Source: Planctomycetota bacterium (lineage in GTDB: Bacteria; Planctomycetota; SZUA-567; H5-PLA8). From it: a DNA stretch of 64,000 bases. The DNA is taken from contig JBBRPR010000001.1 in assembly GCA_038227875.1 (NCBI GenBank), positions 32,001 to 96,000 on the forward strand. The letters run 5' to 3'. Shown one piece after another: positions 2 through 44,597 of the stretch; within the stretch, counting starts at the first letter, position 1; each line of letters starts with the position of its first letter. A model generated the notes under the pieces. It worked only from the letters and a program-made list of their open reading frames with translations, was not told the DNA's origin and ran no database searches. Position numbers and translations under genes: made by a program.

Positions 2-3000
2 GCCGACCGCGCGGAAGTGATCGCGCCGTACTCCGGACATTCGACGCCCGAACAGTGGACGGCGCTGATCGTCAAAAATCCCGCGCCGTTCAAGGCAACG
101 CCGCAGATCCGCGCGCTGAACCTGCTGGTGCAAGCGCCGACGCCGGAGCTCTACAAGAAGCTTGGTGAAGTGCTGCAGGGCGTGCCGTCGTACTCCGCGG
201 CGATCATCAACACCATCAACGCCGGCAATCTGGACATGGACGCAGCCAGCGCCTACATCCTCAAGAATGAAACGTGGCACGCGAACAATCCCAACGAAAT
301 CATGAGCTGGCTGCGCAACAATGTCTGGGGAACGATCAATTCGTTCGCGCAGGTGGCGAAAAAGCCCTTCGCTGGCGATTACAACGACCGGTTCTATTCG
401 CGGGTCGGCGCGGAACTGGTTGCGTCGACGCCCGTGGCGTATTCGGACCTGGGACAGACCGGCGAATACCTGCGCGTTTCGTGGTATTACTCCGGCAAGG
501 ACGCCAACGATCATTCCAAATTCGCGGAGGTGATTCGCAGCCTCGATTGGGTGCCGTATTCCGCGCAGCAGCGGCAGCAGGTCTTCACGCCGGCGCTGAA
601 CGAATTCCGGCGCTGGTCGGAAGAAGTGAAGAAGGACGCCAAGCGCCTGGCCGAAAATAAGGCCGTGATGGATGAGATCGAAAAAGCGCTGACGCTGGCG
701 ATGTCGGATCACAAAGGCGATCCGAAAAAGGCGCCCAATGCGCTGTGCAAGGCGCTCAGCGGCTTGGGGCTGGCGATTCAGGCCAAGGACAAGGAAGCGT
801 ACACGGTTGCGGCGCGCGAACTGTACGCGCAGGTCAAGGAGTACAACGCGGCGCACACGCCGTGGGGCAAGTACATCTACGACACCATTCTCGAGAACCG
901 CCTGGAGCAATTCGACACGTGGGATTTTCAGTGCGAAGTGCTCGCCGATCAACTCACGCGCTCCGACACGCCCGCGGCTCAGGAACGGATTGTCGAGTGG
1001 AGCCACCGCGTCACCCACCGCCCGAACTGGCAGTGGTGGAACTGGAACTGGTGGCAGGCGACGCAGGTGGACGCCGACAAGGCGCGCAAGCTGCGGGGCA
1101 TCGTGGAGAAGACGATTCTCGAGCAGGCCGACAAGGGGACTCTCTGGACGGAGCTCGTGACGCTCTATCGCTCGACGCGCCAGGGACCCGGCTGGAACGA
1201 CGCCGACAGCGGACACACGGTGCTGGAAAAACTGATCACGACGAAGACGTTCTTCAAATCGCATTACCGCGAAGAGCCGTGGGTGAAATCGGACACCTCG
1301 TCGTATCCATGGCTGATCCAGCGCGAGTTTCAGAAGCAGGACGCGAAGTTTCCGGTCGGCACGTACTTCGACGACATGTACGTGGAGGAAGAGACCGCCG
1401 CGAAGTACATGGATTTTTCGTACTTCAATTTCGGCCGCGACGAGAAGAAGCGCATCCGCAACATGGCGGCGGGATTCTTCAAGGATTTCGAACGACTGCC
1501 ATTCGGGTATTCAGACAAGGCGCCCCAGTACACGCAGGATGAATTCTGGCGCTGGCACTACCAGATCCTGGAAGCCGAGCCGGCGTTGCGCGACGCGTTT
1601 ATTGCTCAAGAGGAAACGTACTACGGAAAGTCGCGCTACGACGACTTCGCCGCGGGACGCGGTTATTTCAGCCACCAGTGGCGCATCGAAAACCCCGAGA
1701 CGCGGAAGAAGTTCTTCGAACGGCTGGGGCAGTTCGTGGAACACATCAAGGATTCCGGAGACCGCGGCGGATTCTCGCCGGAGCGCACAATGGCCGGTCA
1801 ACTTCCGCCCATGCACGCGCTCTCACAGATGGGCGGGAAATTTTCCAAGGAAGAGCTGGATGCGCTGACGGGCCTCTTTCCGCAGTGCGTGCCGCTTCAC
1901 TGGTACGGCGGCTACAGCTACGAATGGTTGCTCACCGCCACGATTGAAGGACTGCTCGAGAAAAAGCGCGAAAACGAATTGATGCCGATCGCCGGGCATC
2001 TCTGGAAGATCTCGCTGGACACCGGCAACACCGACTACCAGCGCAAGATGGCGCAGTATACGGTGAAATTCTCAGAAGAGAAACATACTGAGTTGGCGAC
2101 GGTGTTCGCGATCGCGGGGCTGGAAGTGATGGGCGAAAAACTTCCTGAAGACGCGCGCGCGTCGCTGCAGGCGATCCGCAGCAAGGGGCTCGGTGCGCTG
2201 GGACACGAGATTCCCGTCGCGGCCAACGACCCACGCTACCCGATCTTTTTCGCGCAGAGCGAATTCCAGAATGGCAAGCAACCCAGCGCGTGGGAGACGT
2301 ACCAGGCCAATCCGGCGCTGGTGACCTCGTCGTACAAGGAACTGGATATTGGCTTCCTGCTCTGGCTGCTGGCGCGCAACACCGATGCCGGGCAGTTCGA
2401 CCGCGCCGATGCACTGGCTCACGCTTTAATTCCGTGGGTGGAAGGCAGTCCCGCCGCGTTTGAACCCGATGCGCGCGGCCGGTTGATGCTCTATTACGGC
2501 GACATTTCCTACGCACGAAAAAATTTCCCACGCGCGCGCAAGGATTACGAACGCGTCACGGCAAGCAAGGAATATGAAGGCACGCTGGCGCAGCGCGAAG
2601 CGGAACTGCGCATCGCGGAAGTGGATCGCGCCGTGAAGGACTACGATGCGGCGCTGCAGCGCCTGGACCGCCTGGCCAAGCGCCACGACGTGTACCTCGA
2701 GACGGAAGCCAACTACCAGATGGCACTGGTGAAGTTCGACCAGGCCGACTACGAGGGCGCACAGCGCTACCTGGAAGAAGTTTTCGCGCACACGCCCGAA
2801 CATGAAAAGGGCCGCCTGCTCGAAGCCGATGTGAATTTGAAGCGCGAGCAGCCTGACAAAGCGACAAACATCAAGGGCGGTATGACGCAGGAACAGAAGC
2901 TGCTGATTCCCGGCACGCCGCTACGCGTCAACTTGAAGGATACGAATCTTTCGGTGGTCGGAAATTCATCGCGCATCGAAGTGCGCGTCTGGACGGATTC

Positions 3001-6000
3001 CGGCGACAGCGAAACCATCAATCTGCTGCCGACAGACACGAAAACACAATTCGAAGGCGAAATCACCACCACGATGGGTCCGGTGAAGAAAGACGACCAC
3101 CAGCTGCAGGTGCTGGGCGGCGACAAAGTTCACTACGATTACTCGGAAAAGTTCAAAGAGGAACACAAGATCGCGCGCAACGAACCAGTAACATTGGAAG
3201 TGGCCTCGAACTCGCAGTTGATCGTCTCGTCGGGAAAAATTCTGACCAAGGAAGAGCAGCAGGACCTGGAGGCCGAGCGCCAGATCCGGCAGAGCCTGAA
3301 AGGTGACGACGCGCAGACGACGCTGAGCACCACGCGCGCCGAGGACCAGATCAAGCCGGGCAATAAGATCAACGTGCGTGTGATCGACTTCGACCGCAAC
3401 ATCAGCGCGGAAAAAGACACTGTGATGGTACGCGCGACGGCTTCCAGCGGCGACGTGATCGAAGCGTTCCCTCTGGTGGAGACCGATACGCACTCTGGAA
3501 TTTTTGAGGGTGAAATACCAACGGCGCCCGGCCATCCAATGGCGACAGCCTCGGATTCAGGAGAAGGCCGCGAACCGAACAACGTGATCTCCAGCGTGGA
3601 CCGTCCGGCGTGGATCGCGCAGTCCGACGGCCGCCGCCCGAAGATCTTCACCGTGAATTTAAACGACAACGTGAAGATGCAGAGCTTGAATATTCTTGCC
3701 GACGTTCCCGACCGCAAACTGAAGGCGTTTGCCGTCGAGACGTCGATGAACGGCACCGACTATTCGGCAGTCGGTATCTGGCCCGATCAACTCGCGCCGT
3801 GGGACGGCGCGCTGACGTGCGAGCTGATGAAGTGTCCGGAGGGTCCGGCGCGGTTGCAGGACGCGGTCTCGTACGCCGATGGCGGGTACCAGCGGACCGG
3901 CGCGCCGAAAGTGACACTGCCGATGAAGACCTTCGGCATCAGCCTCGACAATCAGCTCAACGGCAACGCCGACAAGATCAAACTGACGTGGCAGGAATCA
4001 ACTGCGTGGTACCTGCTGCACATGCACGGCGCGTTCTATCTTCCCAAGCGTGAACTGAAAACGTTCACGCTCGACAACAAGAAAAAGTTCAACGAGATGC
4101 GCTACTTCTTCGCTGTCGACGGTGTGGCCGCGCCGGCGAACAACGCACTGGAGATCAAGCGCGAACTGGCGAAGGGCGTGCACCGCGTTGACGTGTATGT
4201 CTGGTCGCACCGCCACACAGGCGTGACGTTCGACGTGCAGACGACGTCCTCGGAGGACGGGACGCCGGCGGTCTGCAGCGCCGAAATGTTTGACCCGGTC
4301 AAGCAGCCGGCGATCAAGGAAGCCTGCTGGGTCGAACCGGCGCAGGTGAAAGCCGGCGCGGAGAACACATCGTTCGACGTCAGCTTCGCCAAGGGCGCGC
4401 ACGCGCGGTTTTTGCGGCTGGTCATCGCCGACTACGAAAAGGACGCGCCGGGCCTCCATAAGCTCAAGCTGGTCGACACTGAAAATCAGACCGTGCTGCC
4501 GACGAAGGACGACTTCATGGCGCTGCGCGAAAACAAGACGCTGGAAATTCTACCCGGCGACAAGATCACCGTGACGTACCGAGATCCTGTTGTGGTGACG
4601 AAGGGACAGGAAGTGCAGGAACGCTTCATGACCGCGACGTTCTACAATGCGAAGCTCAGCGCTTGCTTGGTGGAATATGTGCCGACTGCGCGCGGAGACA
4701 AACTTCCGAAGTACATCCCGCTGCGCCGCTTCATTCCCGGCGACCCGGGCGATCCCAATCACACCGGCGTCAACAATGTCTTCGTCTTCATCAACGATCC
4801 CGACGAAGACACAACTGATGCGCCCGACAAGATCAAGTTCAGGGCCGTGGCCGGAAAATCGACGCTGGAATTGGAAGCGACGGAGACCGAACCGCATTCG
4901 GGCGTGTTCGTCGGCAACATTTATCCCGTTACCGGCGCGCCCAAGCGGCCCAACGAGATCACCGTCGGTCCCGATGACGACATCACCATTCATTACATGG
5001 ATAAAGAAAACACCGATCCGGGTGTGCCGTGGGACCGGATGTTCGTGGTCGAGCAGTCGTTCTCGCAGGCTCCGAAGCTCGCAATATTCGATGTCGACCC
5101 TCAGGCGTTGACGCCGGAAGAACTGAAAGTCGCCAAAGCTGCCGACGAGATGAATCGCCGCGTGACGGAATACGTGCCGATAACCTCGAAGCTCGTCGCC
5201 CACCGACCCACGCAGAAGGCCGACGACAAAACTCCGCTGCCGCCCTCGAACTTGATCTCCGATGGTCCGCTGGTGGTGGAACTCACGTATCCAGCGCTGG
5301 CGCGGTCGCCGATCAGCGAAGCGACGATTTACGTTCAATCCGCCTCGGGCCGCGAGAAGGCAGGCAAGCCGATTGAGCCCGGCAGCTTCGACGAGACCGT
5401 TCCAGGCACGTTGAAACTCACCCGGCGCCCGGAGGCTATCCACTGGCGCATCGAGCCGCCCGCGGGCTACCAGGAAGTTTTTATCCGCGATCAGCGCAGC
5501 AACGACGAACTGCTCAGCGACGGCAAGTTCATCTTTCACATCCCGCTGGAACTGGCGGAAGTCCCGGCCGAATCGCTGGTGGGCTACGTTCAGCCCGACA
5601 ACATCAATGCCAAACCGCTGACGCTCTCGGTGCGCGGCAATGACTCCGTGTTCGTCGGCTTCAAATACACGGAGGCCGGAGCCACGAAGTGGTCCGTGCA
5701 GGAAGCGCACCTCAAGAGCGAGCCGCGCTTCCACGTGATGAACAACCGCTACCAGGAAGTGCTCAGCGGAGCCCACGTCGGCGACAACCTGTACCTTCGC
5801 GTCATTCACAAAACGATGGACACCTCCAACGCACGCAACTCCGTGACGGTGCAGTTCGAAACCAGGACCGGGAAGAAGCAGAGCGTGACCCTGGCCGAGA
5901 CGCTCAATCACAGCGGCGTGTTCAAAGGCACGATCAAGCTGGCGTACGTGGGCGATAAGGAAGGCGCGCAGGAGGCCGGTACGTTGCCGGTCGATTACGG

Positions 6001-7033
6001 CGACAGCATCACCGCGACGTACGTCGTTGAAGGCGCGAAGGAACCGCTGACCAGCGTGCTGGAAGTGTACAAAGGTTCCGACGGCAAAGTCATTCCGTTC
6101 ACGCGTCGCTTTAAGGACATGAGCCTGGCGGTGCAGACTCAGTTCACGATTGCCGAATCGTACTTTGAACTGGCCAAGCAGCACCGGGGACTCAACCAGC
6201 CGGAGCAGGCGCGGCTGGAAATGGCGGAAGGCAAGAAGTTGCTCGAAGAAGCGATTCGCGATTTCCCGCGCGACGATTCAAAAGTCGAAGCCGAATACCT
6301 GCTGGCGGAATTGTCGCTCGAAGTCGCCGACGACGCGGCCGACGAGGACGCGAAGAAAAAGAGTTACACCGAGGCGCAGATACGCTTCAGTGAAATTGTG
6401 TCCGCGTACCCCACCAGCACGCGCGCGCCGCTGGCGCAGTTCAAGAAGGCGCTGATTTACGAAAAGCTGGGGATGATGGACCAAGCCTGCGAAGAGTATG
6501 TGAAACTTTCCTGCCGTTACCCGCACGACGACCTGGTCTGCGACACCATTGCGCGCCTGGGTGAGTACTTCCGCAAGAAGGCTGAAGATTTCGAAAAGCA
6601 GTCGACTGCCGAGCAGGATGCGGTGAAGGCCGAGAAGCTCCACCGGCAGGCTAAGGACACGTACGTCACTGCCGGCGAAGTGTTTTCCCGTCTGAGCGTG
6701 CGCAACCCGGCGCATCGCCTGGCGCTGAAGACCATGCTGCTCTCCGGGCATTGCTACCGGTTGTCGGAACACTGGGACAAGGCGATCGCGCAGTACAAGC
6801 TGGTGATCGACAACACCAATAAGGACCGTGAGTTGATTCCGGCGGCGATGTATTACACCGGCACTTGCTACATGGCGAAGCGCGATGAAAAGTCGGACGA
6901 ATCCGCGTACCACGCTTTCCACAATCTGATCTACGAGTACGCCGGCACCGATTGGGTCAAGAAGGCCAAGGGCCTGATGTACGAAGAGCGAATGATAGAA
7001 GCGGAAAAGAGAGACCAGAAGAACAGTCACTAG
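2..7033 (+). CDS. Giant TPR / Ig-like-repeat protein with discoidin- and PA14-like inserts (5' truncated, >2340 aa)
   Basis: Frame is open from position 2 (GCC GAC CGC GCG GAA GTG), so the gene starts left of the window. TPR-like helices lie at about nt 2350-2850 (e.g. ANYQMALVKFDQADYEGAQRYLEEV) and nt 6140-7000 (AQFKKALIYEKLG, AMYYTGTCYM). Recurrent ET-x2-HSG-[IV]-F-x-G-x-I beta repeats lie between. Confidence 0.85.
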   Translation, partial: ADRAEVIAPYSGHSTPEQWTALIVKNPAPFKATPQIRALNLLVQAPTPELYKKLGEVLQGVPSYSAAIINTINAGNLDMDAASAYILKNETWHANNPNEIMSWLRNNVWGTINSFAQVAKKPFAGDYNDRFYSRVGAELVASTPVAYSDLGQTGEYLRVSWYYSGKDANDHSKFAEVIRSLDWVPYSAQQRQQVFTPALNEFRRWSEEVKKDAKRLAENKAVMDEIEKALTLAMSDHKGDPKKAPNALCKALSGLGLAIQAKDKEAYTVAARELYAQVKEYNAAHTPWGKYIYDTILENRLEQFDTWDFQCEVLADQLTRSDTPAAQERIVEWSHRVTHRPNWQWWNWNWWQATQVDADKARKLRGIVEKTILEQADKGTLWTELVTLYRSTRQGPGWNDADSGHTVLEKLITTKTFFKSHYREEPWVKSDTSSYPWLIQREFQKQDAKFPVGTYFDDMYVEEETAAKYMDFSYFNFGRDEKKRIRNMAAGFFKDFERLPFGYSDKAPQYTQDEFWRWHYQILEAEPALRDAFIAQEETYYGKSRYDDFAAGRGYFSHQWRIENPETRKKFFERLGQFVEHIKDSGDRGGFSPERTMAGQLPPMHALSQMGGKFSKEELDALTGLFPQCVPLHWYGGYSYEWLLTATIEGLLEKKRENELMPIAGHLWKISLDTGNTDYQRKMAQYTVKFSEEKHTELATVFAIAGLEVMGEKLPEDARASLQAIRSKGLGALGHEIPVAANDPRYPIFFAQSEFQNGKQPSAWETYQANPALVTSSYKELDIGFLLWLLARNTDAGQFDRADALAHALIPWVEGSPAAFEPDARGRLMLYYGDISYARKNFPRARKDYERVTASKEYEGTLAQREAELRIAEVDRAVKDYDAALQRLDRLAKRHDVYLETEANYQMALVKFDQADYEGAQRYLEEVFAHTPEHEKGRLLEADVNLKREQPDKATNIKGGMTQEQKLLIPGTPLRVNLKDTNLSVVGNSSRIEVRVWTDSGDSETINLLPTDTKTQFEGEITTTMGPVKKDDHQLQVLGGDKVHYDYSEKFKEEHKIARNEPVTLEVASNSQLIVSSGKILTKEEQQDLEAERQIRQSLKGDDAQTTLSTTRAEDQIKPGNKINVRVIDFDRNISAEKDTVMVRATASSGDVIEAFPLVETDTHSGIFEGEIPTAPGHPMATASDSGEGREPNNVISSVDRPAWIAQSDGRRPKIFTVNLNDNVKMQSLNILADVPDRKLKAFAVETSMNGTDYSAVGIWPDQLAPWDGALTCELMKCPEGPARLQDAVSYADGGYQRTGAPKVTLPMKTFGISLDNQLNGNADKIKLTWQESTAWYLLHMHGAFYLPKRELKTFTLDNKKKFNEMRYFFAVDGVAAPANNALEIKRELAKGVHRVDVYVWSHRHTGVTFDVQTTSSEDGTPAVCSAEMFDPVKQPAIKEACWVEPAQVKAGAENTSFDVSFAKGAHARFLRLVIADYEKDAPGLHKLKLVDTENQTVLPTKDDFMALRENKTLEILPGDKITVTYRDPVVVTKGQEVQERFMTATFYNAKLSACLVEYVPTARGDKLPKYIPLRRFIPGDPGDPNHTGVNNVFVFINDPDEDTTDAPDKIKFRAVAGKSTLELEATETEPHSGVFVGNIYPVTGAPKRPNEITVGPDDDITIHYMDKENTDPGVPWDRMFVVEQSFSQAPKLAIFDVDPQALTPEELKVAKAADEMNRRVTEYVPITSKLVAHRPTQKADDKTPLPPSNLISDGPLVVELTYPALARSPISEATIYVQSASGREKAGKPIEPGSFDETVPGTLKLTRRPEAIHWRIEPPAGYQEVFIRDQRSNDELLSDGKFIFHIPLELAEVPAESLVGYVQPDNINAKPLTLSVRGNDSVFVGFKYTEAGATKWSVQEAHLKSEPRFHVMNNRYQEVLSGAHVGDNLYLRVIHKTMDTSNARNSVTVQFETRTGKKQSVTLAETLNHSGVFKGTIKLAYVGDKEGAQEAGTLPVDYGDSITATYVVEGAKEPLTSVLEVYKGSDGKVIPFTRRFKDMSLAVQTQFTIAESYFELAKQHRGLNQPEQARLEMAEGKKLLEEAIRDFPRDDSKVEAEYLLAELSLEVADDAADEDAKKKSYTEAQIRFSEIVSAYPTSTRAPLAQFKKALIYEKLGMMDQACEEYVKLSCRYPHDDLVCDTIARLGEYFRKKAEDFEKQSTAEQDAVKAEKLHRQAKDTYVTAGEVFSRLSVRNPAHRLALKTMLLSGHCYRLSEHWDKAIAQYKLVIDNTNKDRELIPAAMYYTGTCYMAKRDEKSDESAYHAFHNLIYEYAGTDWVKKAKGLMYEERMIEAEKRDQKNSH

Positions 7034-7056
7034 AGCAGGGATTTGAGGAGGACGGC

Positions 7057-8034
7057 ATGGACACACTGTGGCCCATGGTTGTGGGTGCGGGAACTGTCGA
7101 GAAAATCATTCTCGTGCTGCTGGGCGTGCTCTCGGTGGTGCTGTGGAGCACGGTGATTCTGAAAGTTCCAGAGATCCTCGCCGCGAAGCGCAACGGCGCA
7201 CGCTTTCTCGAGAAATTCCGCGAAGCCAGCGACTTTGGCGAAGTGAAGGCGCTGGAATTTCAGGGCGACTGCATCCACCACGAAGTCTTCAAGTCGGCGC
7301 TCGCGGCGTTGAACGGCAAGCCGCCGTCGAAGCAGCCGGTCGGAACAAGCGACCCGGAGCGCTTCAGGATCGCGCCCGACAGTTCCACCGAAGAGATCGT
7401 GTTGCTGAGCATGCAGCACACCAGCGCGGCGTATCTGCTTCACCTTCAGCGCGGGATCAGCATGCTGGCGACGATCGGCAGCACGACGCCGTTCATCGGG
7501 TTGTTCGGCACGGTGATCGGCATCATGAGCACCTTCCACGCGCTCGGCGCGGTGAAATCGCCGAGCATGCAGGTCGTGGCGCCGGGCATCTCCGGCGCGC
7601 TGATCGCCACGGCGGCCGGACTGGCCGTCGCGATTCCTGCGGTGATCGTGTGCAACTGGTTCTCGTCGCAGATCGGAATGATTCAGGAAAGCGTCGACGC
7701 GTTCATTGAAAAGATGATGGCACTGGTCCGCGCCAACTGCGAAGCAAAGGCGGAAGCCGCGGAGGCAAAAGCTCCCGCGGTCCGCGAAACGCCGGCCGCG
7801 CCGAAGGTACTCAAGCCGCACAGTGATGTCGCCGCGCCGAAAGTGCGCACCGACGTTCCGGTGGCGGTTCCACGGCGCGTCACCGCGCCACGGCCCGACG
7901 CGGCACTGGCGGTGGAGAAGGACGTCAGCGACACGCCGAGCACCAAACGCCCGGGCGCAAAAATGTCAGACGATCTGTTGAGCGAAAAATCGCACGTGGA
8001 ATTGGCTGTCGGTAAAAGGATGCCCAAAACATGA
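7057..8034 (+). CDS. MotA/TolQ/ExbB proton channel protein with Pro/Ala-rich C-terminal tail
   Basis: GAGGAG RBS before ATG 7057. N-terminal TM, then family motifs LATIGSTTPFIGLFGTVIGIM and VAPGISGALIATAAGLAVAIPA. Confidence 0.93.
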   Translation: MDTLWPMVVGAGTVEKIILVLLGVLSVVLWSTVILKVPEILAAKRNGARFLEKFREASDFGEVKALEFQGDCIHHEVFKSALAALNGKPPSKQPVGTSDPERFRIAPDSSTEEIVLLSMQHTSAAYLLHLQRGISMLATIGSTTPFIGLFGTVIGIMSTFHALGAVKSPSMQVVAPGISGALIATAAGLAVAIPAVIVCNWFSSQIGMIQESVDAFIEKMMALVRANCEAKAEAAEAKAPAVRETPAAPKVLKPHSDVAAPKVRTDVPVAVPRRVTAPRPDAALAVEKDVSDTPSTKRPGAKMSDDLLSEKSHVELAVGKRMPKT

Positions 8035-8462
8035 GCATGAGCGTCAGCGCAGGCCCGGCGAAAAAGGGCAAGAAGAAATTCCACGCACCCACGCCTGAAA
8101 TCAACGTGACGCCGCTGGTCGACGTCATGCTCGTGCTGCTGATCATCTTCATGATCACCGTTCAAGCAGCGAAGGATTCGATTCCTGTCGAACTTCCCGA
8201 TGCGGTGGGAACTCCGGAGGCGGGCGATAAGACGCCGCTGGAAGTCACGCTCGATGCGCGCGGCGATATTCATATCGGGAACCAGACGTTCGGCCTGGAA
8301 GTCGTCGAACAGGAATTGCCACGCCTGCTGAAAGGCCACGAAAAACAGGGCGTGACGCTCAGCGCCCACAAGAAGATGCCGTACGAATCAGTGGTAAAAG
8401 TGGTCTCGGCCATTCGCGAAGCTGGTGTGGAGACGGTCAACCTGGCGGTGGAAGGTCAGTGA
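8031..8462 (+). CDS. ExbD/TolR biopolymer transport protein
   Basis: EINVTPLVDVMLVLLIIFMIT with the conserved TM Asp, and C-terminal YESVVKVVSAIREAGVETVNLAVE. ATGA overlap with the exbB-like gene. Confidence 0.95.
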   Translation: MSMSVSAGPAKKGKKKFHAPTPEINVTPLVDVMLVLLIIFMITVQAAKDSIPVELPDAVGTPEAGDKTPLEVTLDARGDIHIGNQTFGLEVVEQELPRLLKGHEKQGVTLSAHKKMPYESVVKVVSAIREAGVETVNLAVEGQ

Positions 8463-8854
8463 AATCCAAGGAGCTGGACATGATCGATTCGGCAGATTCC
8501 AAAACGCGTCCGATTTCGCATGGGTATCCGCTGCCGCGTGTGCTGCTGGCGGTGGGCATCGCCGTGGTTGTTCACGGTGCCCTGGTCGGTGCGTCGGTGA
8601 TGAGCGCGTCGGGCAAAGCGCCAGAAACTCCGGCGGCGAACGTGAAGCCCGGCCCTGCAGACGCGAAATCCAAACCCGCTGCCGATTCCACGGGACCGGC
8701 CACAACCTCGGAAGAAAAGCCGCCCGCGACGGCCGATAAGCTCTCCGTGGATGGACCGGCAGACCCGAAACCTCCGGCGACGGAGAACGAACCCAAGAAG
8801 ACTCCCGAAAAATCCAACGATTCGCTGGATGAACTGAAACTGGACACGAAGTAA
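8459..8854 (+). CDS. Small single-TM protein with Pro/Ala/Lys-rich tail (mini TonB/TolA-like)
   Basis: GTGA overlap with exbD-like gene. TM LLAVGIAVVVHGALVGASVM contains a His, followed by a low-complexity P/A/K/E tail. Confidence 0.6.
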   Translation: MKSKELDMIDSADSKTRPISHGYPLPRVLLAVGIAVVVHGALVGASVMSASGKAPETPAANVKPGPADAKSKPAADSTGPATTSEEKPPATADKLSVDGPADPKPPATENEPKKTPEKSNDSLDELKLDTK

Positions 8855-8864: not shown

Positions 8865-10499
8865 GTGATACGACGACTAATCTCACGAATTCCCTGGCCG
8901 GCCATTCTCGCGCTGCCGTTTGTTCTGACGGCGGCCGTGATGCTGGCGGGCGCATTTTTGGGCTCGGGAGCGCTCACGGAATTCATCGACGACAATCCCG
9001 GCGCGCCGGCCGCCTTCGCGAACTCGCTGTTGGAGCATCCCGCTCAAATCCGCCTGATTCTTCTGGCGCTTGGCGCAGTCCTGACCTTGCTGGGCGTCGC
9101 CGCGTTGATTCGAAAACCGGGCACGCTGAAGATCGTTCGCGGCGGATTCTTCGCACTCTACGCACTGATGCTGGTCTACACCTTCTTTGTAGTGCAGGTG
9201 ACGCTGCGTGTGCAGGGCGCGCACATCAAAGTCGATGGCGAAGATTTGCAGGGCGTAAACCTGGTCAGCTGGCTGGTGAGCTTCTACTGGTTCGTCTTTC
9301 CGCTGGCGATGATCGCGGGGATCACGCAGTTGTACTCGCTCCGCAGCGTAATCGACCAGGCCTACGGGCGCGACAGCGAAGAACTTCCGACGAAGGGCGA
9401 CCGCATCTTCGAAACAATCTGGTCCCGTCGCGTGCGCAGTTACGTGTACAGCGCCACTGTACATGGCTTGTTCTTGCTGTTGCCGTTTCTGCTTGCGCTG
9501 ATCAATCAAAAAGTGGAAGCGTACTCCGTGCCCTTCGGCAAAGGCCTGGCCGACGCGGGCGGTGGAGGGAAGAAAGCGCCACCGCCGAAACCTCCGGCCG
9601 CAAAGAAGCCGGCGGGACGCAAGACCGTGAAGGTCAGCACGCGCGATCCGAAAAAGCTGAAAGGCGTAATCTTCAGCCCCAGCGCCGGCCGCGAGAATTC
9701 GACGGAAATGAAAGACGCCGCGCTGGCCGCGGATATTTTGAAAGAGACCACGCAGCAGTACAGCGCCGCGTCGCGATTGGGCGAAGGCACGGGCGTCGGC
9801 CCCTGCACGAAGGCCGGTAAGATTGGCGCCGGCGGGGTGGGCGAGGGCGGGTACCCGTGGGGCAAGAAGGGCGCGATCATTCGTTTCATCCGGCTGCAAT
9901 ACGACGGCGAAGGCTGGGATGATGGCATGGACGACAGCCGCGCGGACCTGAATTTCCTCGACTTCTTCCACGAGGTCGTTGGCTTCAAAGTCTCAACGAA
10001 GACCGAAGCGATCGGCATGCATACGCTCAAGGCGTTCCGCAAGGGTGAGGCGCCGCCGTTCGTGTTCATGAAGGGCGAAAGCCACATCGGCACGGCTCCG
10101 CCTGGGGATATCGCGACGCTGCGCGCGTACCTTCTGTCGGGCGGAATGGTCTTCGCCGACGCCGGGTGTCTCTCGTGGGGGCAGGACTTCGAACGCTTCA
10201 TTGCGCGCGTGCTGCCGGACGTGCCGCTGATTGAAATTCCCGACGACGATCCGATTTTCAAAGTTCCATACACTTTCCCCAACGGCGCGCCGCAGATGTG
10301 GCATCACGCCGGCACGCGCGCGAAGGGCTGCAAATACCAGGGCCGCTGGTGCGTCTTCTACCATCCCGGCGATGTCAGCGACGCCTGGAAAAACGGCCAT
10401 GACGGGCTGACGCAGGACAAGGCCGACGTCGCCTTCCAGATCGGGTTGAACGTCGTGTTGTATTCGTTCAATCATTACTACGAATTGAACAAGCCGTGA
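8865..10499 (+). CDS. Multi-TM membrane protein with SxxxH TM helix, Gly/Pro/Lys linker and C-terminal DUF4159 domain
   Basis: Four N-terminal hydrophobic helices, then YSATVHGLFLLLPFLLA, linker GGGGKKAPPPKPPAAKKP, and DUF4159-like FIRLQY..PPFVFMKG..LRAYLLSGGMVFADAG..IPDDDPIF..GLNVVLYS. Confidence 0.8.
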   Translation: MIRRLISRIPWPAILALPFVLTAAVMLAGAFLGSGALTEFIDDNPGAPAAFANSLLEHPAQIRLILLALGAVLTLLGVAALIRKPGTLKIVRGGFFALYALMLVYTFFVVQVTLRVQGAHIKVDGEDLQGVNLVSWLVSFYWFVFPLAMIAGITQLYSLRSVIDQAYGRDSEELPTKGDRIFETIWSRRVRSYVYSATVHGLFLLLPFLLALINQKVEAYSVPFGKGLADAGGGGKKAPPPKPPAAKKPAGRKTVKVSTRDPKKLKGVIFSPSAGRENSTEMKDAALAADILKETTQQYSAASRLGEGTGVGPCTKAGKIGAGGVGEGGYPWGKKGAIIRFIRLQYDGEGWDDGMDDSRADLNFLDFFHEVVGFKVSTKTEAIGMHTLKAFRKGEAPPFVFMKGESHIGTAPPGDIATLRAYLLSGGMVFADAGCLSWGQDFERFIARVLPDVPLIEIPDDDPIFKVPYTFPNGAPQMWHHAGTRAKGCKYQGRWCVFYHPGDVSDAWKNGHDGLTQDKADVAFQIGLNVVLYSFNHYYELNKP

Positions 10500-10528
10500 T
10501 GAACGCCGCATTTCCCGAGGGCAGTGCC

Positions 10529-13500
10529 ATGCCACGAACGTGGGTGTTGACCGTCGCGTGTTTGATTCTGGGATTCGCACGCGCTGGACTTTCCGAGGAA
10601 CTGGAGCTCGATCCGCAGCCGACGAGCACAGCCGCCGCCGAAGAGATCAAGGGCGGGATGCTTTTCCGCTTCGTACCGTTGAACAAGCCGACGGAAAATC
10701 TGGAGGAGCATCTCTTCTGGCGCACGTTCGAGGGCGCGGTGGCGGCAGAGGCCGCTCCGATCAAGCTGCTGATCGACAATCAACCCGTGATCGCGCCGAA
10801 AGAGATTACGATCAAGGACCGCGGCCAGGCGCTGCAGTACCCGCTGGAAGGGCACAAGGATCTGTCCAACGGCAAGCACGTCATCGTGCCCGGCGACATT
10901 GCCATCGTGATGACCAGCGGAAAAATCACGTCGGCTCATCCCGCAATCAAGTCCGACGAAAATGAAGTGCGCGTGCTCTGCGCGCCGGTGCGGTTGGAGG
11001 CGCTCGACGCCAACGGCGTCGCGGTGCCGACCTCGATCAATCTGTCCTTCGGCAAGGAACGGCTGCTGCGCAGCGTGGAGAAGTTTTCCGTACTGACGGT
11101 CTGGCTGCCAATTGGCGTGAAGTACGCCTCGACGCTCGGTAGCTTTTCGGTGGGCGCCGACGGCAAGGTGTCCGCACTTCCAGCGGAACTGGCCAAAGAT
11201 GTAACCGTAACACCCGAAGGATTGCGCCTGCTGGTCAGCACGCCGCCTGCGGCTCCGCCCCGGACGCAGACCTTGTCGCGGGTCTTCGCGCATCCGCTGC
11301 CCGGCGGCAAGGGCACCCTGAATTGCTACTTCAATCCGGTGGTGAAGCCCGGTGAGGCCGCGCGCGTCACGTTCTCAAAGAAGCAATTTGAGAGCGGCAC
11401 GGGCTCCGCTTTTGTCGCGAACGAATTTACCTATGCATTTCCCAACGGCTCGGGCGGCGCGTGTGGGGTGGAGAAAGCCGTCGCGGATGCAGCGTTGATT
11501 GCCTCCGAGCTGCAGATGGAGGCGGCCGAGCTGGTACAGTTGAAAATTCCCAGCCCGGCATGGACTGCGACCGGCGTGATGCCGTTCAAGATCGAAAACA
11601 AAAAGCTGGGCACGATTTCCCAGACGCTGGTCTACGCGGATCCCGCCGCTTCGCTGTACGTCATACCGCATCGATTGCGCTCGGTCTTCACGGATGCGGA
11701 AAATGCCGGCTTCACCGTGCTGCTCAAGCCGAACTTTCCCGGCGGGTCGGCGAACGTCATCTGCAAGAGCGACGCCGCCGACGCCAAGCCGCTGACTCTC
11801 GGTACGTTGCAGCTTCCCGCGGTGGCCGGGAAGCAATTCGATTCGCGGTTGTTCGCGATCAAAACGAGCGCGTTGCCGGCGGGCAATTACCAGCTCTGGG
11901 TGGAAGCCGGCGGGGTGGCGAGCAGCCGCGTGCCGCTCTCGATTGTCTCGTGGTACTTCCGCAGCCCGTTTCTCGTGCATGAAATGCCCGGTTGCGCGGG
12001 TGCCTGGCCCACGGACGACGAGGGCTTGAAAGTGCTTCAGGATGCCGGCGTCGAAATGATTTCCAGCGGCGGCTTTGGCAGCATCTTTAAGGCGAGCGAC
12101 ATGCCGGGAGTCGATCAGGCACTGGCCGCAGCGCTGCGTGACGAACTGGGAATGCCCGTGGAGACGGCGCAGCAGCGCTGCCCGGCGGACTTCGCGCTCC
12201 AGGACATGCTCAAGCACCACATCCGCATCATCGACTTCTATCCGCGCGGGGAGAATTTTTATCTCGAAGGGTTGTCGTACCATCACAGTTTCAAACCCAG
12301 CGTCGATCGCATGATCCGCCGCCTGCAGATCTTTACGCAACAGACGATGGATTACCCCTCGCTGTGGGGCATGAATTATTCGTGGTTCCCGGCGCTCTTT
12401 GGTTATTCGGAAGGCGGACTGGACACGGACATCCACAAGCGCGATCGCAACGCGGCGCTGGCGGCGAACCTGAAGCAGGCGGGCCTCGAAAATCTGACCG
12501 CCGACGAACGGAATTTTTATCTCGCCAACGCGTTCTCCGATGACGAAGCAAAGCGCGCAAAGTCGCTTGAGCTGATGCAGAAAGCCACGCGCTACTGGAA
12601 GGCGCAGATGGATTTCGGTTTCGGCCGGCACAACAAATTGTACAACGACGCCGTGCGTGACGTTCAGCCGGGCGCGGCCTGCGTGCTGTTTGAAAACGCG
12701 GGACACGACGAACTCAAGCGCACCCGCTCGCTGTTCAACGACATGACGGCGATGACATACGAAAGCTACAGCGACTATCCTGAGTGGCCGATGTCGTCCT
12801 CGTTCACGACCGACTGGGGTCGCGGTAACTTTCCCGGCCGGCCGCTGTGGGTCACGATGGATCCGGGTAACAGTTCCGAAGGCCAGATGAAAAGCTTGTT
12901 CCACGCCTTTGGCCGTGGCGCGGCCGGTGCGGGCACGGTGATCGTCGAGCCGCTGAACCTGCAGGAGATCAAACGCCGCACAAAGGGCCACCAGTTTGTC
13001 GCGCAGTACGGAGCGATCGCAACTAGAGGCACGCCCGATCACCGCTTCGCCATTCTCTCCACCGCCGCGCAGCAGGTTTTCGTGGGCCGCACGCAGTATG
13101 CCTATCATGCCATGTACTACCATCTCACGCGGCTGGGCTGCGCGCCGGTCATCGTCGACGATGAAGACGTTGGCAACGCCGGCATTCCCGCCGGCACGCA
13201 GGTCCTGTTCCTCGTCCGGCAGCAGCAACCGCTGGAACCCAAGGTCTTGAGCGCAATCAAGGCATTCACAGACAAGGGTGGCAAGGTCATCGTCACCGGC
13301 GATACGAAAGTGAAGATCGACGGCTCAATCGTCGCGGGCAACACCGTGAAAAATATTTGGGACCTGGGCGGCTTCGTTTCGCACCCGCAATTGTGGGAGG
13401 AGTTCGAAAAGAATTGGGAGAAGCCCTTGACCGAAGCGCTGGCGAAGGCTGGCGTTCCTCCCGCGGCGAAAACCGATCCGCACCGCGGCGTTGTGGTTTC

Positions 13501-16500
13501 AGTCGACAGCGGCTCGGTGCGCTATGTAGTCGTGATCTCGGATGAAGAAAATCAGTCGTGGGCGGTCTTCAAACCCAATCCAGCGCTCCCGGTTTCTCTG
13601 GAAGGGACCGGCTGGACCGTGCGCGATCTGGTGAAGCAACAGCTGCTGAAAGGCGCGGAGAAGGATGGCCGGACGGATGTCTCCGTCGATCTGATCACCG
13701 AGCCGGTGACCGTGCTGGCGCTCTACAAAGAAGCACCGTCGGCCGTGACCATCAAAGTCCAAGGCGATGTTCACGCTGGCGGCGATCTGGTGCTTAACAC
13801 GGAGGTGCTGGCCGGCGCAAAACCGCTGGGCGCGGTACCAATTCAGGTCGACATCACCGATGCCGCGGGCGTGGTCCGTTTCTCGGCGTACCGCGGCGCG
13901 GGCGACGAAATCCGCTGCGCCGTTCCCGGATTGGATGTGGCCGGAAATTGGACGATCAAGGTTCAGGAGCAAATCACCGGCGTCACCGCAACTGCGGCCG
14001 TCGCGGTCGGGGCGGCAGTGAAAGCCGAAGCCGCGCTGACGTCGGTGGGTGATGTTCATGTCGTCAACGCCGATCACCTCCATAAATTCATGAAGCGCAC
14101 CAGCGAAAAGCGAATTGTCGTGGAGCCGGGCCAGGAAAAGTTTCTGCCGGTCGCCAGGAAACTCGCCGATGACCTTACCGCTGCCGGAGTGAAGACGACG
14201 GTCTGGCAGACGAAGGCCGACGACTACGACACGCTGCCGATCCGCTGGTACCCGCGCGAAGACGAAGACGTGCCGCGCTGGAACCTGCTCAACGCCGGCA
14301 AGATGATCGCCGTCCGCGAGAACATGAAGCCGTACGTCGACACGGTCAACCGCGCACACATTCCGGAAAAAGGCGGCTACGGCGAAGTCAATCCGCCCTA
14401 CATGGTCGGCTTCGATTGCATTCTTTTCTCCGGTGGGCGACTCGCGGAAAGTCTTCGCGCGCAGACGCCATGGATGGAAACGCCGAACGTTCCGGGCAAG
14501 GGGCAGGGCCGCCTGGTCGTCTGCTTCAGTCCGTTTCTCGCCAATTTTAATGCGCTGGCGCTGGTGGCCAACGATGAGGCCGGGACGAGCAAGGCCGCTG
14601 CGGAATTGCTGAACTTTGCCAAACCCGCTGCTGCTGCAGTTGTGAATGCGCCGGGCGGAGAATGGAAGTCACTGACGCCAACGGTGGCGACGGCTCCCGT
14701 CGTCGAAACGTTCGCACCCTATTCGCCGCTGCGCCACGTTCGCAATCTCTGGGCGACGCGAGACGGCAAGACCGTGGTCTGCCTGGACAGCAAGAACGAT
14801 ACACTCGCGTTCGTCGATCCGGCCGGAAAAGTCGTCGCCTCGGTCGCTACGGAAGTTCAGGACCTGAAACATTCTCACATCGATGACGGTGGACGATTCT
14901 GGACCTGCACGTCCAAACACACGAGCGGCGAATGGTACATGCAGGAGTTGACGTTCCACTGCATCGGTCCTGACGGCACGCAGCACAGCGACTCGCCCGT
15001 TTACAATGGCAGCGTGTACTTCGACACGCTGCCCACGGATTACCCGGGCGGCTTCAATGTCGCGCCCAACGGCACGACAATGCTCCTGGGTCTGCGCGGC
15101 GGTTTTCAACTCGGTGATGTCGGCACGGCAAAATGGAACCGCTTCGCCGACGAACCTTTCGTGCCGGTGCGCGATGCGATCCGGCATCCGCGCTTCCCTG
15201 TCGGGTCGGCGTTCTCGCCGGATTCCAAATACGTGTTGCTGACGATGGACACACGGCCGCCCGGTTGGGGCGGCATGAATATGCCGGCCGAACATCCGTG
15301 CGCCAGTGCCACCTTTCTTTTCGATACGGTAAGCGAAAAAGTGCTCTGGCAACTTCGCGACGATGAGATCCGCAAGTCCACGTATGCGGTGCATACCGGT
15401 TTCGGCGCCGTCTCCCGCGACGGAAGCGTCGCGGCGATTGCCGACTACCGCGGCTCGGTTTACGTCGTCGATAAGACCGGCGCGATCCAACTACAGGAAG
15501 TAATCAACACGAAAATTCCCGAGCGCTTTGCTTCCGGCCCGATCGACGGCGTGGGAGTGTGGATGAGCGAATCGGGAAATCTGACGGCGGCCGCGTTTAA
15601 GAATCTGCTTCTGGTCATCAACGGCAAACACGTGGAACGCGTGAAGTTGCCGGCGATCGCCACCGGCTGCGTCAGTCGCGATGGCACGCTGGCGGTTGCG
15701 GCGCTGGAAAGCGGTGAGGTCGAGGCGTTTGATGCAGAAGGAAAGCCCAAATGGGTGTTCAATTCCAACGGCGTCGCCCCTTTCCTCGCTCCGGTGAACG
15801 ACAACAGCACTCTCGTGGCGACCAGTGAAGGCGATCTGGTGCTGCTCGACGCCGGCGGCAAGGAAGTGCGCCGCACGCACCTGCTCGAAACTACGGAGCA
15901 GGCGCGACATGAAGTGAAGAACGCGGCGGATTTCAAACCGGCAATCATGCCGCAGGCCTACCGCGAACCGGACACGCTGGACGTGGCGAAAAAATTGCTC
16001 GGCGCCAAGGCGATTGCCGCGTGGAAGCCCGCCGGGGCTGCCGTGGCGGCGTTCAATCGCACATTCTATCCCGCCACGGAGAAAATCACGCTGACCGGCG
16101 ATTCGCCGCGCGGCGAGGCTTTCCTGCATCTGGTCTACCGCCGCTTGCCGACAAATAAATCGCTAACCGTCGTCGTGCCGCTGGGCAAGGAAGGCACCGA
16201 AGTCTTCGATCTGGATCTGGAGACGCCCGAATACCGCGTGATCGATATTCCCGTGCAGGGCGTCAAGCCGGTGGTGAACGTGATTCCGACCGGCCCGACG
16301 GAAATCGCCGAATGCACGCTCTACAGCATGCAATGGCCCAGCCCCAATCTGGCGCTGGTCAAGCAAACGAAGACGATGGAGACCTCGCTGGAGCCCGACA
16401 AACTGGACGACACCGCCGATTCCGAGTCGAAGGCCGATGCCGCGCTGATGGAGCTTAAGGGTGAGGACGGCATCATTGGAAAAATGAAGAACTGCGCGAT

Positions 16501-16915: not shown

Positions 16916-16967
16916 ACCCTGGTTCAAATTTGTACCAGATTCGGGGAGCGTGGCAGTGAATGTACGA

Positions 16968-43688: not shown

Positions 43689-44566
43689 TGCGTCATTGCG
43701 TAAAGAATGAAATTCACGCCCATGCGGTATCCGGCTTCGCGCATGCCGCCGAACATATCCATGTTATGCATGCCGGTGCCGAGCGGATTGGACGGCGTCG
43801 GCGGGCTGGAGACTTCCCACATGCAACCGATGTCCGGCGGCGTGTAGAGAATCCGCAGGTAGCCTTGCACGATCATGCCTTCGAACGGATTGGAGCCGAG
43901 AATCTGCGGCAGGCCGCGTTCGTTCACTTTCGTCCAGGCGAATTTCAGTTTCAGAATGCTGGAGACCGCCGCCGCGCATTGTTCGATCGGCGTAAATTCG
44001 CCTTCAGGATAGACGCGCTTCATCTCGCCGTGAAAAGACGGGCCGAAAGCATTATTGCCATAGAGACAGTCATCGGCGTGGAGGAAACCGCCGTTGTCGA
44101 GGTACTTGCGCAGGCCGTCCTTCTCGCCTTCGGAGAGGCAGAAGGAATTGTGCGCGGTCATGTACACGTACGGCCAGTCGGTCAGCTCCGGGTCGTCAAA
44201 CGTGAGCGGCTTGCGCGGCTGCAGCGCCTGTGCGTCCATGCCGGTGCGTTTGTGAAATTGATCGACCATCGCCGGCACCGCGGTGGGGTCGCAGTCCCAA
44301 TCGGAATTGAATTTGATCTCGCGCATGACGAAGCGCCGGCGGTTGCGCACGAAATCCTGCGGCACTTCATCGTCCGCCTGATCCTCGGCCTGCTCTTTCA
44401 GCAGCGACTCGCGCTCTTCGGCTGACAGGCCGACGATGCCCGTGTCCGCCGACGATTCTTGCGCGTCGCCCTGGAGCTCCGCGTTCCAGTTTTCTTCGGC
44501 AGCGCAGACGCTCGCGGCGCTTAGCGCAACCATTGCGATCAGCAGCGGCACGGTCCGTAATTTCAT
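43685..44566 (-). CDS. Secreted DUF4159 domain protein
   Basis: Signal peptide, then DWDCDPTA..LTDWPYVYMTAH..LRKYLDNGGFLHADDC..GVNFILYAMTH. Confidence 0.9.
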   Translation of the reverse strand: MKLRTVPLLIAMVALSAASVCAAEENWNAELQGDAQESSADTGIVGLSAEERESLLKEQAEDQADDEVPQDFVRNRRRFVMREIKFNSDWDCDPTAVPAMVDQFHKRTGMDAQALQPRKPLTFDDPELTDWPYVYMTAHNSFCLSEGEKDGLRKYLDNGGFLHADDCLYGNNAFGPSFHGEMKRVYPEGEFTPIEQCAAAVSSILKLKFAWTKVNERGLPQILGSNPFEGMIVQGYLRILYTPPDIGCMWEVSSPPTPSNPLGTGMHNMDMFGGMREAGYRMGVNFILYAMTH

Positions 44567-44597
44567 CGCCTCGCCTCCACCTTTAAGAGAACTGCGC

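Follow-up and report, generated by a model that had tools for sequence, protein, structure and literature searches.

The window analysed here, a stretch of 64,000 nucleotides from a member of the Planctomycetota, carries on its plus strand a gene (8865..10499, GTG start) predicted to encode a 544-amino-acid inner-membrane protein with five transmembrane (TM) helices, one of them TonB-like, followed by a linker and a DUF4159 head. The gene is part of a cluster that runs in the order TPR, ExbB/TolQ, ExbD/TolR, a small gene that we call the stub, and the DUF4159 gene, all on the plus strand, with start and stop codons that overlap or nearly abut. The first gene (17..7033) encodes a giant TPR protein of 2,338 amino acids with Pfam matches to TPR_6, TPR_2, and YfiO; its C-terminal region is YbgF/CpoB-like and BamD-like (NCBIfam tol_pal_ybgF, E 2.9e-18, residues 2104 to 2190, below cut-off). 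It is followed by an ExbB/TolQ-type proton-channel subunit (7057..8034; Pfam MotA_ExbB, E 5.3e-31), which starts at the ATG at residue 36 of the open reading frame (ORF) 6952..8034, and by an ExbD/TolR-type subunit of 143 amino acids with a transmembrane aspartate, D31 (8031..8462; Pfam ExbD, E 1.5e-30), whose start overlaps the exbB stop. The stub (8480..8854) encodes a TolA/TonB-like anchor of 124 amino acids with a single TM helix containing an invariant histidine (VVVHGALV), and an AAGGAG sequence lies 6 nt before its ATG at 8480. The DUF4159 gene is thus located two genes after exbB-exbD, as the original prediction had stated. Downstream, the ORF list gives a giant protein of 2,139 amino acids (10496..16915, plus strand), the start of which overlaps the stop of the DUF4159 gene. 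It has a hydrophobic N terminus, read by eye as a signal peptide, and only weak matches to DUF4350, ABC_transp_aux, and DUF7402, all below cut-off; homologues of it follow the DUF4159 gene in two related loci only (L011 and L084). The last codirectional gene encodes a GDSL/SGNH hydrolase-like protein (16887..18059, plus strand; Pfam Lipase_GDSL_2, E 3.2e-22). Counts of terminator-like sites (16 versus 14.4 expected) and promoter-like sites (3 versus 2.3 expected) between positions 6800 and 18300 are uninformative on the limits of the operon.

A crude hydropathy scan (Kyte-Doolittle, window 19), rather than a trained predictor, places TM segments of the DUF4159 protein at residues 15 to 33, 65 to 83, 96 to 114, 133 to 151, and 195 to 213, and the long helices of an AlphaFold2 model (mean pLDDT of 85.8, >90 over most of residues 1 to 210) agree with these five segments. 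TM helices 1 to 4 (residues 15 to 151; 8907..9317) are modelled with pLDDT values of ≥90 and are predicted to form a four-helix membrane bundle. R92 in this region is invariant in both family alignments (A1 and A2). Structural comparison of the bundle yields nothing but generic helical bundles (Z ≤9.6), and for a helical protein such matches carry no information. The predicted cytoplasmic loop before TM5 (residues 152 to 194; 9318..9446) contains a conserved G178-D179 ... R190-x-S192 motif, in which G178 and D179 are invariant in alignment A2 and kept in 113 and 115, respectively, of the 116 sequences of alignment A1; the motif is also present in single-TM relatives (P0249 and P0175). TM5 (residues 195 to 213; 9447..9503) includes the string YSATVHGLF with S196 (9450 to 9452) and H200 (9462 to 9464), as well as P207, so that the SxxxH helix and the four extra helices in front of it, both claimed from the sequence alone, were found as described. 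TM5 is followed by a periplasmic juxtamembrane motif (Y220, P223, G225, and G227) and a Gly/Ala/Lys/Pro linker (together 9504..9881). Short strands are seen in the AlphaFold2 model at about residues 223 to 228, just after TM5, and Y220 and G227 are kept in 116/116 homologues. The linker proper (residues 228 to 339; 17.9% Gly, 14.3% Ala, 14.3% Lys, and 8.9% Pro) is mostly modelled with pLDDT <50 (most of residues 232 to 318) and, at 112 residues, compares with a family median of 86 (range, 78 to 134). The C-terminal DUF4159 domain (residues 340 to 535; 9882..10469) matches the Pfam profile PF13709 from position 1 to 202 of its 202 positions (E 9e-31, 107.4 bits versus a cut-off of 25.9), which, together with the linker, bears out the remaining part of the predicted architecture. 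At E ≤0.01, the protein has no other Pfam match, TonB_C (PF03544) included.

Lysine and arginine residues number 3/1/3/2/7 in the successive loops, with the 7 in the loop before TM5, a distribution that indicates an N-in, C-out topology. An N-terminal FHA domain is found in 3 of the 25 relatives that were scanned, two of which then show five predicted TM segments; FHA domains are generally cytoplasmic. With five TM helices and the N terminus predicted inside, the linker and the DUF4159 head would face the periplasm, and both the charge bias and the FHA fusions predict a periplasmic rather than a cytoplasmic location for the head. To our knowledge, a polytopic anchor is unprecedented among TonB/TolA-type transducers.

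The Ser-x3-His motif is strongly conserved and lies on a conserved stripe of TM5. Among 116 homologues with about 35% identity (alignment A1), S196 is kept in 115, H200 in 114, and P207 in all, and positions 197 to 199 and 201 to 206 of the same helix vary freely. Full-length orthologues read from species-representative genomes gave 65/66 for Ser and 65/66 for His; the sets share members and do not count as independent evidence. The helix is also found in relatives with one TM segment (P0239, P0249, P0267, P0269, and P0175) or two (P0260), which, when their sequences were read by eye, had the His in 6/6 and the Ser in 5/6. Since these relatives keep the Ser/His helix, its conservation is not explained by packing against TM1 to TM4. 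The N-terminal module is joined to DUF4159 in 22 of the 25 relatives scanned, the other three having no Pfam match, and among full-length matches it never occurs without a periplasmic linker and head. Judged by these alignments, Ser-x3-His in TM5 is not a chance match, and the Ser/His helix forms the unchanging core of the DUF4159-anchor family. The conservation among homologues that the original prediction had named as a check was thus found.

The conserved helix agrees only in part with the SHLS motif of TonB and TolA. Positions 196, 200, 207, and 211 fit its i, i+4, i+11, i+15 register, but of the four motif residues just the first Ser and the His are retained: in place of Leu stands an invariant Pro (116/116), and the last Ser position is Q, S, T, or E in the family. 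Directly after TM5, most homologues carry Gly (110/116) and Cys (104/116), preceded by Arg/Lys and a hydrophobic stretch. This could suggest that TM5 in most members is a cleaved or uncleaved lipoprotein-like signal anchor and that the DUF4159 part is held by a lipid and not pulled through the helix. We give this very little credence, as the window's protein, the most divergent member of the family (end branch of 1.47 in a FastTree tree), has Gln-Lys at the Gly-Cys positions, Arg or Tyr frequently occupies the −2 position, an atypical choice for a lipobox, and a mere signal peptide has no need of an invariant Ser, His, and Pro.

The gene neighbourhood is conserved as well. Among the 59 related loci with enough upstream DNA, an ExbB/TolQ gene lies on the same strand within 3.5 kb upstream of the DUF4159 gene in 57, in keeping with the original prediction that homologues stand beside exbBD, and a homologue of the giant TPR protein is encoded upstream, likewise on the same strand, in 55. 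The TM aspartate D31 is invariant in all 32 cluster ExbDs, and by this measure the motor looks intact. The window's own cluster is an atypical, divergent subtype with one ExbD/TolR.

Taking conservation, topology, and synteny together, we propose, with a probability of roughly 60%, that the DUF4159 protein is the force-transducing, TonB/TolA-analogous inner-membrane component of the TolQ/TolR-type proton motor encoded upstream. The Ser/His face of TM5 would bind the ExbB/TolQ pentamer from outside, like the helices of TonB and TolA, and proton flow through ExbB5-ExbD2 would move or tension the linker, some 110 residues long. The DUF4159 head might then serve as a noncatalytic, amidotransferase-like binding module that hands the work to a partner in the periplasm or the outer membrane. 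Most plausibly, this partner would be found among the operon's own giant TPR or beta-propeller proteins; the 2,139-amino-acid protein and the C-terminal peptide of the stub are further candidates. The four additional helices, together with the conserved cytoplasmic loop, probably provide further contacts with either the motor or the small anchor. In the cell, such a device could tether the envelope of bacteria that lack Tol-Pal, or could belong to a surface or uptake apparatus. The transducer reading of the original prediction is thus partly supported by these three lines of evidence. That prediction had overlooked the stub as a rival anchor, and against the reading speak the invariant Pro in place of the SHLS Leu, the polytopic anchor, the lack of any TonB or TolA profile match to TM5 and the linker, and the divergence of the window's protein and of its cluster.

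The stub in its own right resembles the TolA anchor and carries an invariant His, and there are therefore two candidates for the TonB slot. An alternative is that the stub is the true TonB/TolA-type transducer and that the DUF4159 protein is its membrane-anchored partner or target, which may receive the acidic C-terminal peptide of the stub and whose His helix would pair with the stub helix and not with ExbB; in a variant, both proteins could sit on the same pentamer. In the stub, the one TM helix is N-terminal, with the His kept in 70/70 aligned stubs, and leads into a low-complexity linker; in 65/70 loci, the DUF4159 gene is immediately preceded by an ORF of the stub family. The last 30 or so residues of canonical stubs form a conserved motif, as expected of a docking peptide. 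A search of residues 180 to 345 of the DUF4159 protein (TM5 plus linker) against the TonB and TolA profiles of NCBIfam at E values up to 10 gave no match, whereas the stub, alone of the two proteins, matches the TolA N terminus (E 0.0011, model positions 3 to 84). However, at 18 bits versus a cut-off of 59, this match is far below threshold. The stub has a Pro/Lys/Ala-rich tail and an acidic C terminus but no globular head, its Ser position is Ala in 63/70, and the stub of this window diverges so far that the stub-family HMM misses it at E 1e-3. Moreover, the one- and two-TM DUF4159 relatives retain the Ser/His helix, in a comparison confined to the proteins themselves. On balance, we consider the stub unlikely to be the transducer in place of the DUF4159 protein.

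Structural comparison relates the DUF4159 head to a class I glutamine-amidotransferase-like fold. Its top Foldseek match is PDB entry 4i66 (E 3.8e-9), and VIA-align aligns it to 4i66 with a Z score of 24.6 (root mean square deviation of 1.8 over 186 residues) and to GATase1-type chains with Z scores of 8.0 to 9.3; apart from 4i66, the matches listed are amidotransferase-, ThuA-, and flavodoxin-like chains. No von Willebrand factor A (vWA) chain is among the best 48 Foldseek and best 50 VIA-align matches listed, which does not exclude that fold. PDB entry 4i66, titled "uncharacterized protein," is Hoch_4089 of Haliangium ochraceum, a structural-genomics protein of about 200 residues that has the same DUF4159 domain (sequence profile E 2.5e-6), and its alignment to the window's protein covers this domain only. 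Full-text literature matches for DUF4159, PF13709, Hoch_4089, and 4I66 were limited to the 2016 Pfam database paper.

This fold raises the question of whether the protein could be a membrane-tethered periplasmic enzyme or scaffold that acts in the same pathway without mechanical coupling, the Ser and His having an intramembrane role of their own. A hydrolase-like or ligand-binding DUF4159 would agree with the amidotransferase fold and with the retention of an H-P-G-D string (each position kept in 111 to 116 of 116 homologues) and a W-H-H string (114 to 116 of 116). In addition, a stand-alone DUF4159 protein is encoded in an unrelated MoxR-DUF58-BatA cluster of the same window, so that the domain as such needs no motor. 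Class I glutamine amidotransferases use a nucleophilic Cys with a His-acid pair, however, and our assignment of the nucleophile elbow, made by analogy and not by alignment, points to position 433, where no more than 78/116 homologues have Cys and the window's protein has Ala. The near-absolute exbB synteny, the match of the conserved positions to the TonB register, and the constant association of the N-terminal module with a periplasmic linker and head likewise argue against an uncoupled protein, and we regard this explanation as rather improbable.

Motor-driven transducers with a head other than TonB have recently been proposed for PVC bacteria by Williams-Jones et al. (2025; Mol Biol Evol 42:msaf138, PMC12204202). 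That paper describes SHLS-helix transducers encoded downstream of TPR-tolQ-tolR-tolR, with a head of vWA fold (YfbK-like), a single TM helix, and a "motor box," predicted to be a beta strand, within the disordered stretch that follows the helix; AF3 modelling there docks the His helix of such transducers at the TonB site. The window's protein shares with them the SHLS/His TM helix, the disordered linker of about 100 residues, the globular non-TonB C-terminal domain, and the position downstream of TPR, tolQ-like, and tolR-like genes. It differs from that description in its five-helix anchor (versus one), in the single tolR (versus two), and in its head, which is DUF4159 with amidotransferase-like matches versus vWA in the paper.

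DUF4159 is not named in the text of PMC12204202 or in one of its supplements. None of 51 neighbouring proteins scanned from 12 such loci has a Pfam vWA domain, which leaves the DUF4159 protein as the only candidate at these 12 loci for the transducer described there. In the one-TM relative P0249, we count the His at residue 35, the figure given in PMC12204202. It is probable that the window's family and the published transducer family are the same, and the DUF4159 protein probably belongs to this class of motor-driven envelope proteins. Since the concept of non-TonB motor-driven transducers is already in print, based on comparative genomics and AF3 models, the window adds detail and no new principle. 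The details are the polytopic anchor, a second His-helix protein (the stub), the DUF4159/amidotransferase-like head, and a divergent subtype with a single TolR.

The likeness to the classical systems is partial. TonB and the window's protein have in common a Ser-x3-His TM helix after basic residues, a Pro/Lys-rich periplasmic linker, and a gene beside exbB-exbD; unlike TonB, the latter has no TonB_C domain and no TonB profile match, has five TM helices instead of one, and carries Pro for the motif Leu. The cluster resembles Tol-Pal in that TolQ and TolR are the models to which its motor subunits give their highest scores (for ExbB, NCBIfam tolQ 147.6 bits versus exbB 125.4 bits, each below its own cut-off) and in that the giant TPR protein ends in its CpoB/YbgF-like region. 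Unlike in TolA, no domain III was detected in the DUF4159 protein, and it is the adjacent stub that gives the TolA-like signal. The Pfam and NCBIfam scans of cluster proteins revealed neither a TolB nor a Pal.

Ton serves nutrient import, and Tol-Pal serves envelope integrity; if the proposed coupling is true, the DUF4159 protein would represent a third periplasmic output of 5:2 motors, and tying DUF4159 to a proton-driven motor gives the domain a testable role. More tentatively, the whole cluster could constitute a third type of envelope machine akin to Ton and Tol, in which one TolQR-type motor simultaneously drives the headless stub, with its terminal docking peptide, and a polytopic DUF4159 transducer and energises several thousand residues of TPR/beta-propeller scaffold. 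We see this larger reading as possible but doubtful. Its purpose may be outer-membrane tethering or the handling of macromolecules at the cell surface, and it may be patchy among PVC-labelled genomes. DUF4159 would then be a general force-receiving adaptor, which might in addition account for its occurrence in MoxR-vWA (Bat-type) clusters.

The cluster is also present in metagenome-assembled genomes labelled Akkermansia (L024 and L025). Identity with the Akkermansia mucin-utilisation locus MUL1 was considered and dropped as unsupported, though it is not disproved; according to PMC13174399, MUL1 resembles Sus and lacks synteny in aquatic Akkermansiaceae. The 88%-complete genome yielded no TolB_N domain and no counterpart of the conserved gene found immediately behind the DUF4159 gene at canonical loci (query, the L053 protein). 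It has seven MotA/ExbB matches, the ExbB of the cluster among them, and three TonB-dependent receptors, and its sole TonB_C domain, found by the same Pfam model that does not match the DUF4159 protein, is encoded on another contig.

The gene at 8865-10499 (+) encodes a protein of 544 residues in which DUF4159 is the sole Pfam domain (residues 340 to 535; E = 9e-31; 107.4 bits against a cut-off of 25.9). A simple hydropathy scan predicted transmembrane (TM) segments at residues 15-33, 65-83, 96-114, 133-151, and 195-213, and the long helices of an AlphaFold2 model (116 homologues; mean pLDDT, 85.8) match these segments, with pLDDT mostly above 90. This agrees with the original prediction, in which four further TM helices preceded a Ser/His helix; Ser196 (codon 9450) and His200 (codon 9462) are present in the translation within the fifth helix, TM5, in the string YSATVHGLF. 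The Gly/Pro/Lys linker proposed to lead into a C-terminal DUF4159 domain was likewise recovered at residues 228 to 339 (17.9% Gly, 14.3% Ala, 14.3% Lys, and 8.9% Pro; pLDDT mostly below 50). The database gene call (P0005; 519 aa, 95% coverage) apparently begins at Met26, within TM1. Because homologues align from residues 2 to 10, we prefer GTG 8865 as the start (region 8865-8942); beginning at Met26 would truncate TM1.

At least 190 homologues of ∼35% identity came from a word-indexed search; source names, where given, are Planctomycetota, Lentisphaerae, Kiritimatiellia, and one Magnetococcus. Among 116 of these that were aligned, Ser196 is found in 115, His200 in 114, and Pro207 in all, and positions 197 to 199 and 201 to 206 interchange among hydrophobic residues. 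In 66 full-length orthologues from species-representative genomes, a set that shares members with the first, Ser and His are each present in 65. The spacing of positions 196, 200, 207, and 211 matches the one we take for the Ser-His-Leu-Ser motif of TonB and TolA; unlike that motif, the DUF4159 family has Pro at the Leu position and Gln, Ser, Thr, or Glu at the last. The motif is named in PMC12204202. Immediately past TM5 lie Tyr220, which is invariant, and the string Pro-x-Gly-x-Gly. At residues 215 and 216, Gly (110/116) and Cys (104/116) form a pair of lipobox-like appearance, for which the window protein has Gln-Lys; we consider it highly improbable that TM5 serves members with Gly-Cys as a lipoprotein-like anchor.

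By a crude hydropathy scan, the His helix is preceded by four helices in 66 of the 116 homologues, three in 24, and five in 16. When 1.84 billion representative proteins were searched with a profile built on the first 232 residues, 152 matched, of which 25 were picked for odd length or partial match and scanned with Pfam: 22 contain DUF4159, 3 have no Pfam match, and no other head was found on the N-terminal module in these 25. One TM segment is predicted for P0239, P0249, P0267, P0269, and P0175 and two for P0260; all six keep the cytoplasmic juxtamembrane motif, and by eye His is present in 6/6 and Ser in 5/6. Because these relatives keep these features, we consider the Ser/His helix and its flanks to be the core and TM1 to TM4 an add-on. 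This also argues against the Ser/His conservation being mere packing within a five-helix bundle.

The numbers of Lys plus Arg in successive loops (3, 1, 3, 2, and 7) predict that the N-terminus and the loop ahead of TM5 are cytoplasmic and that the linker and DUF4159 are periplasmic. FHA domains are cytoplasmic, and 3 of the 25 relatives scanned (P0187, P0193, and P0207; also a YscD-like domain) carry one at the N-terminus, followed by five TM segments ahead of the head in two and six in the third (crude hydropathy scan). Loop charges and fusions both predict a periplasmic rather than a cytoplasmic head. The FHA domain in front of the TM module in these three proteins hints at phospho-dependent control from the cytoplasm.

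The gene lies, as originally described, two genes past exbB-exbD. A gene for a 2338-aa TPR protein (17-7033, +), with a YbgF/CpoB- and BamD-like C-terminus, is followed by ExbB/TolQ (7057-8034, +), ExbD/TolR (8031-8462, +), a small TolA-like anchor gene, termed the stub (+; best start ATG 8480 preceded by AAGGAG, end 8854), the DUF4159 gene, a gene for a 2139-aa protein with a signal-like N-terminus (10496-16915, +) whose start overlaps the DUF4159 gene's stop, and a GDSL-type hydrolase gene (16887-18059, +). Both motor subunits score higher with TolQ/TolR than with ExbB/ExbD models, all under curated cut-offs. Sampling one genome per species gave 273 stretches encoding a relative, of which 79 loci were retained. 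Of the 59 loci that extend 3 kb or more upstream, 57 have a same-strand ExbB homologue no more than 3.5 kb upstream, which upholds the expected adjacency to exbBD, and the giant TPR gene is also upstream in 55 of the 59. The exceptions, L039 (8438-12277) and L069 (3312-7553), encode fusions of 1280 to 1414 aa that match both DUF4159 and giant-TPR queries; they have no ExbB nearby and represent a separate architecture carrying the same head.

The canonical order is giant TPR, small ORF, ExbB, ExbD, ExbD, stub, five-TM DUF4159 gene, and a gene for a conserved membrane protein of 330 to 670 aa with no Pfam match (e.g., L074:11542-12678, L027:11527-12516, and L053:11568-12680). This last protein starts with two TM helices and goes on through a charged region and another TM helix to a conserved C-terminal domain; one query did not find it in the window's genome (88% complete). 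The window cluster is an atypical subtype, with a single ExbD, giant secreted proteins downstream, and no canonical last gene. On a FastTree tree, its DUF4159 protein has the longest branch (1.47) and joins those of L011 and L012 in a group (support, 99) separate from the other 64. The usual arrangement is present in G066, a genome from the same taxonomic family.

The original prediction gave no interpretation of the stub. In the window its product has a single TM helix containing a His (VVVHGALV), then a tail rich in Pro, Lys, and Ala that ends in an acidic C-terminus, and it matches the TolA N-terminus model weakly (E = 0.0011, under the cut-off). With an HMM built from ten such genes, 65 of the 70 loci that have space for a stub ORF were found to carry one immediately before the DUF4159 gene; the window's own stub is too divergent to reach E = 1e-3. 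His is present in 70/70 aligned stubs, with Ala four residues ahead of it in 63/70. The stub family (e.g., L074:9454-9891 and L068:9304-9726) has no Pfam match; its members have a low-complexity linker after the His helix, and canonical ones a conserved C-terminal motif of ∼30 residues. The cluster therefore has two candidates for the TonB site, the stub and the DUF4159 protein. It is possible, though we think it unlikely, that the stub is the real transducer and the DUF4159 protein its partner; this would be compatible with the DUF4159 protein being a transducer if both proteins dock.

The top solved structural match of the DUF4159 head is 4i66 (Hoch_4089; Foldseek E = 3.8e-9; VIA-align Z 24.6, rmsd 1.8, 186 residues, 48,161 chains), also a sequence relative (E = 2.5e-6). 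The remaining Foldseek matches (E > 0.02) are amidotransferase-, ThuA-, and WrbA-like, and VIA-align matches at Z 8.0 to 9.3 are class I amidotransferase-type chains, the IFT52 N-terminal domain, and GH42-type domains; no vWA chain is among the matches listed by either program, and the fold could still be vWA. At the position presumed, by analogy with class I amidotransferases, to be the nucleophile elbow, 78 of 116 homologues have Cys and the window protein has Ala; H-P-G-D and W-H-H strings are almost invariant. We read the head as a probable binding module, not an amidotransferase, though this leaves a conserved polar pocket unexplained. Given the conserved Ser/His helix and adjoining exbB, we consider it improbable that the protein is a tethered enzyme or scaffold uncoupled from the motor. 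A full-text literature search for DUF4159, PF13709, Hoch_4089, and 4I66 found only the 2016 Pfam paper.

Williams-Jones et al. 2025 (PMC12204202) describe transducers, encoded downstream of TPR-tolQ-tolR-tolR in PVC bacteria, that combine a helix bearing the SHLS motif (His35) with a disordered linker of ∼100 residues containing a "motor box" and a non-TonB head termed vWA-fold by the authors; AF3 models place the transducer helix at the TonB site, and the function is given as unknown. DUF4159 is not named in the accessible parts of its text or supplement. Because none of the 51 proteins scanned from the neighbourhoods of 12 loci of this kind has a Pfam vWA domain, and because the one-TM relative P0249 has its His, counted by eye, at the same residue number, 35, the two families are probably the same. 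The concept is already published as a prediction. The feature is genuine, with strong conservation, and the original logic of a TonB/TolA-like transducer with DUF4159 in place of TonB_C/TolA-III withstands the conditions set to refute it, with Ser-x3-His conserved, the head predicted to be periplasmic, and exbB adjoining. The mechanism we infer (probability roughly 0.6) is that TM5 would dock on the ExbB/TolQ pentamer, the motor would put the linker under tension, and the periplasmic head would transmit work to a partner encoded in the operon.

Of 201 genomes sampled from the phylum, only 7 have the N-terminal module (6 of 128 when high-quality genomes alone are counted), and the system is therefore patchy, not universal. 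The window's genome (9.3 Mb, 88% complete) has 7 MotA/ExbB matches, 1 TonB_C match on another contig, 3 TonB-dependent receptor matches, 4 OmpA-family matches, no TolB_N match, and 11 DUF4159 matches, one being a copy of the five-TM protein. A second, motor-free DUF4159 context is a Bat-type cluster in the window (39342-53088, −), comprising genes for MoxR AAA (52078-53088), DUF58 (51127-52026), BatA plus VWA_2 (48773-51124), GATase1_like (46458-48776), a protein without an assigned family (44598-46457), a stand-alone 293-aa DUF4159 protein (43685-44566), and a 1448-aa NPCBM protein (39342-43688), all on the minus strand. Elsewhere in the window, a 1329-aa protein (56814-60803, +) has GAF, GGDEF, and Ser/Thr protein kinase domains in one chain.

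On the protein tree, L024, from a MAG labelled Akkermansia muciniphila, is nearly identical to L034, from a Kiritimatiellia MAG, and three MAGs labelled Anaerolineales (L015, L042, and L045) carry a PVC-type cluster; because such labels conflict with the tree, phylum counts from submitters' titles are unreliable. Some genomes have two copies of the five-TM gene (L067, 9983-11719 and 13428-15170; G012:C3; and G178), in tandem in L067 and G012, and these may match the Tichowtungia "two transducers" in the supplement of PMC12204202.
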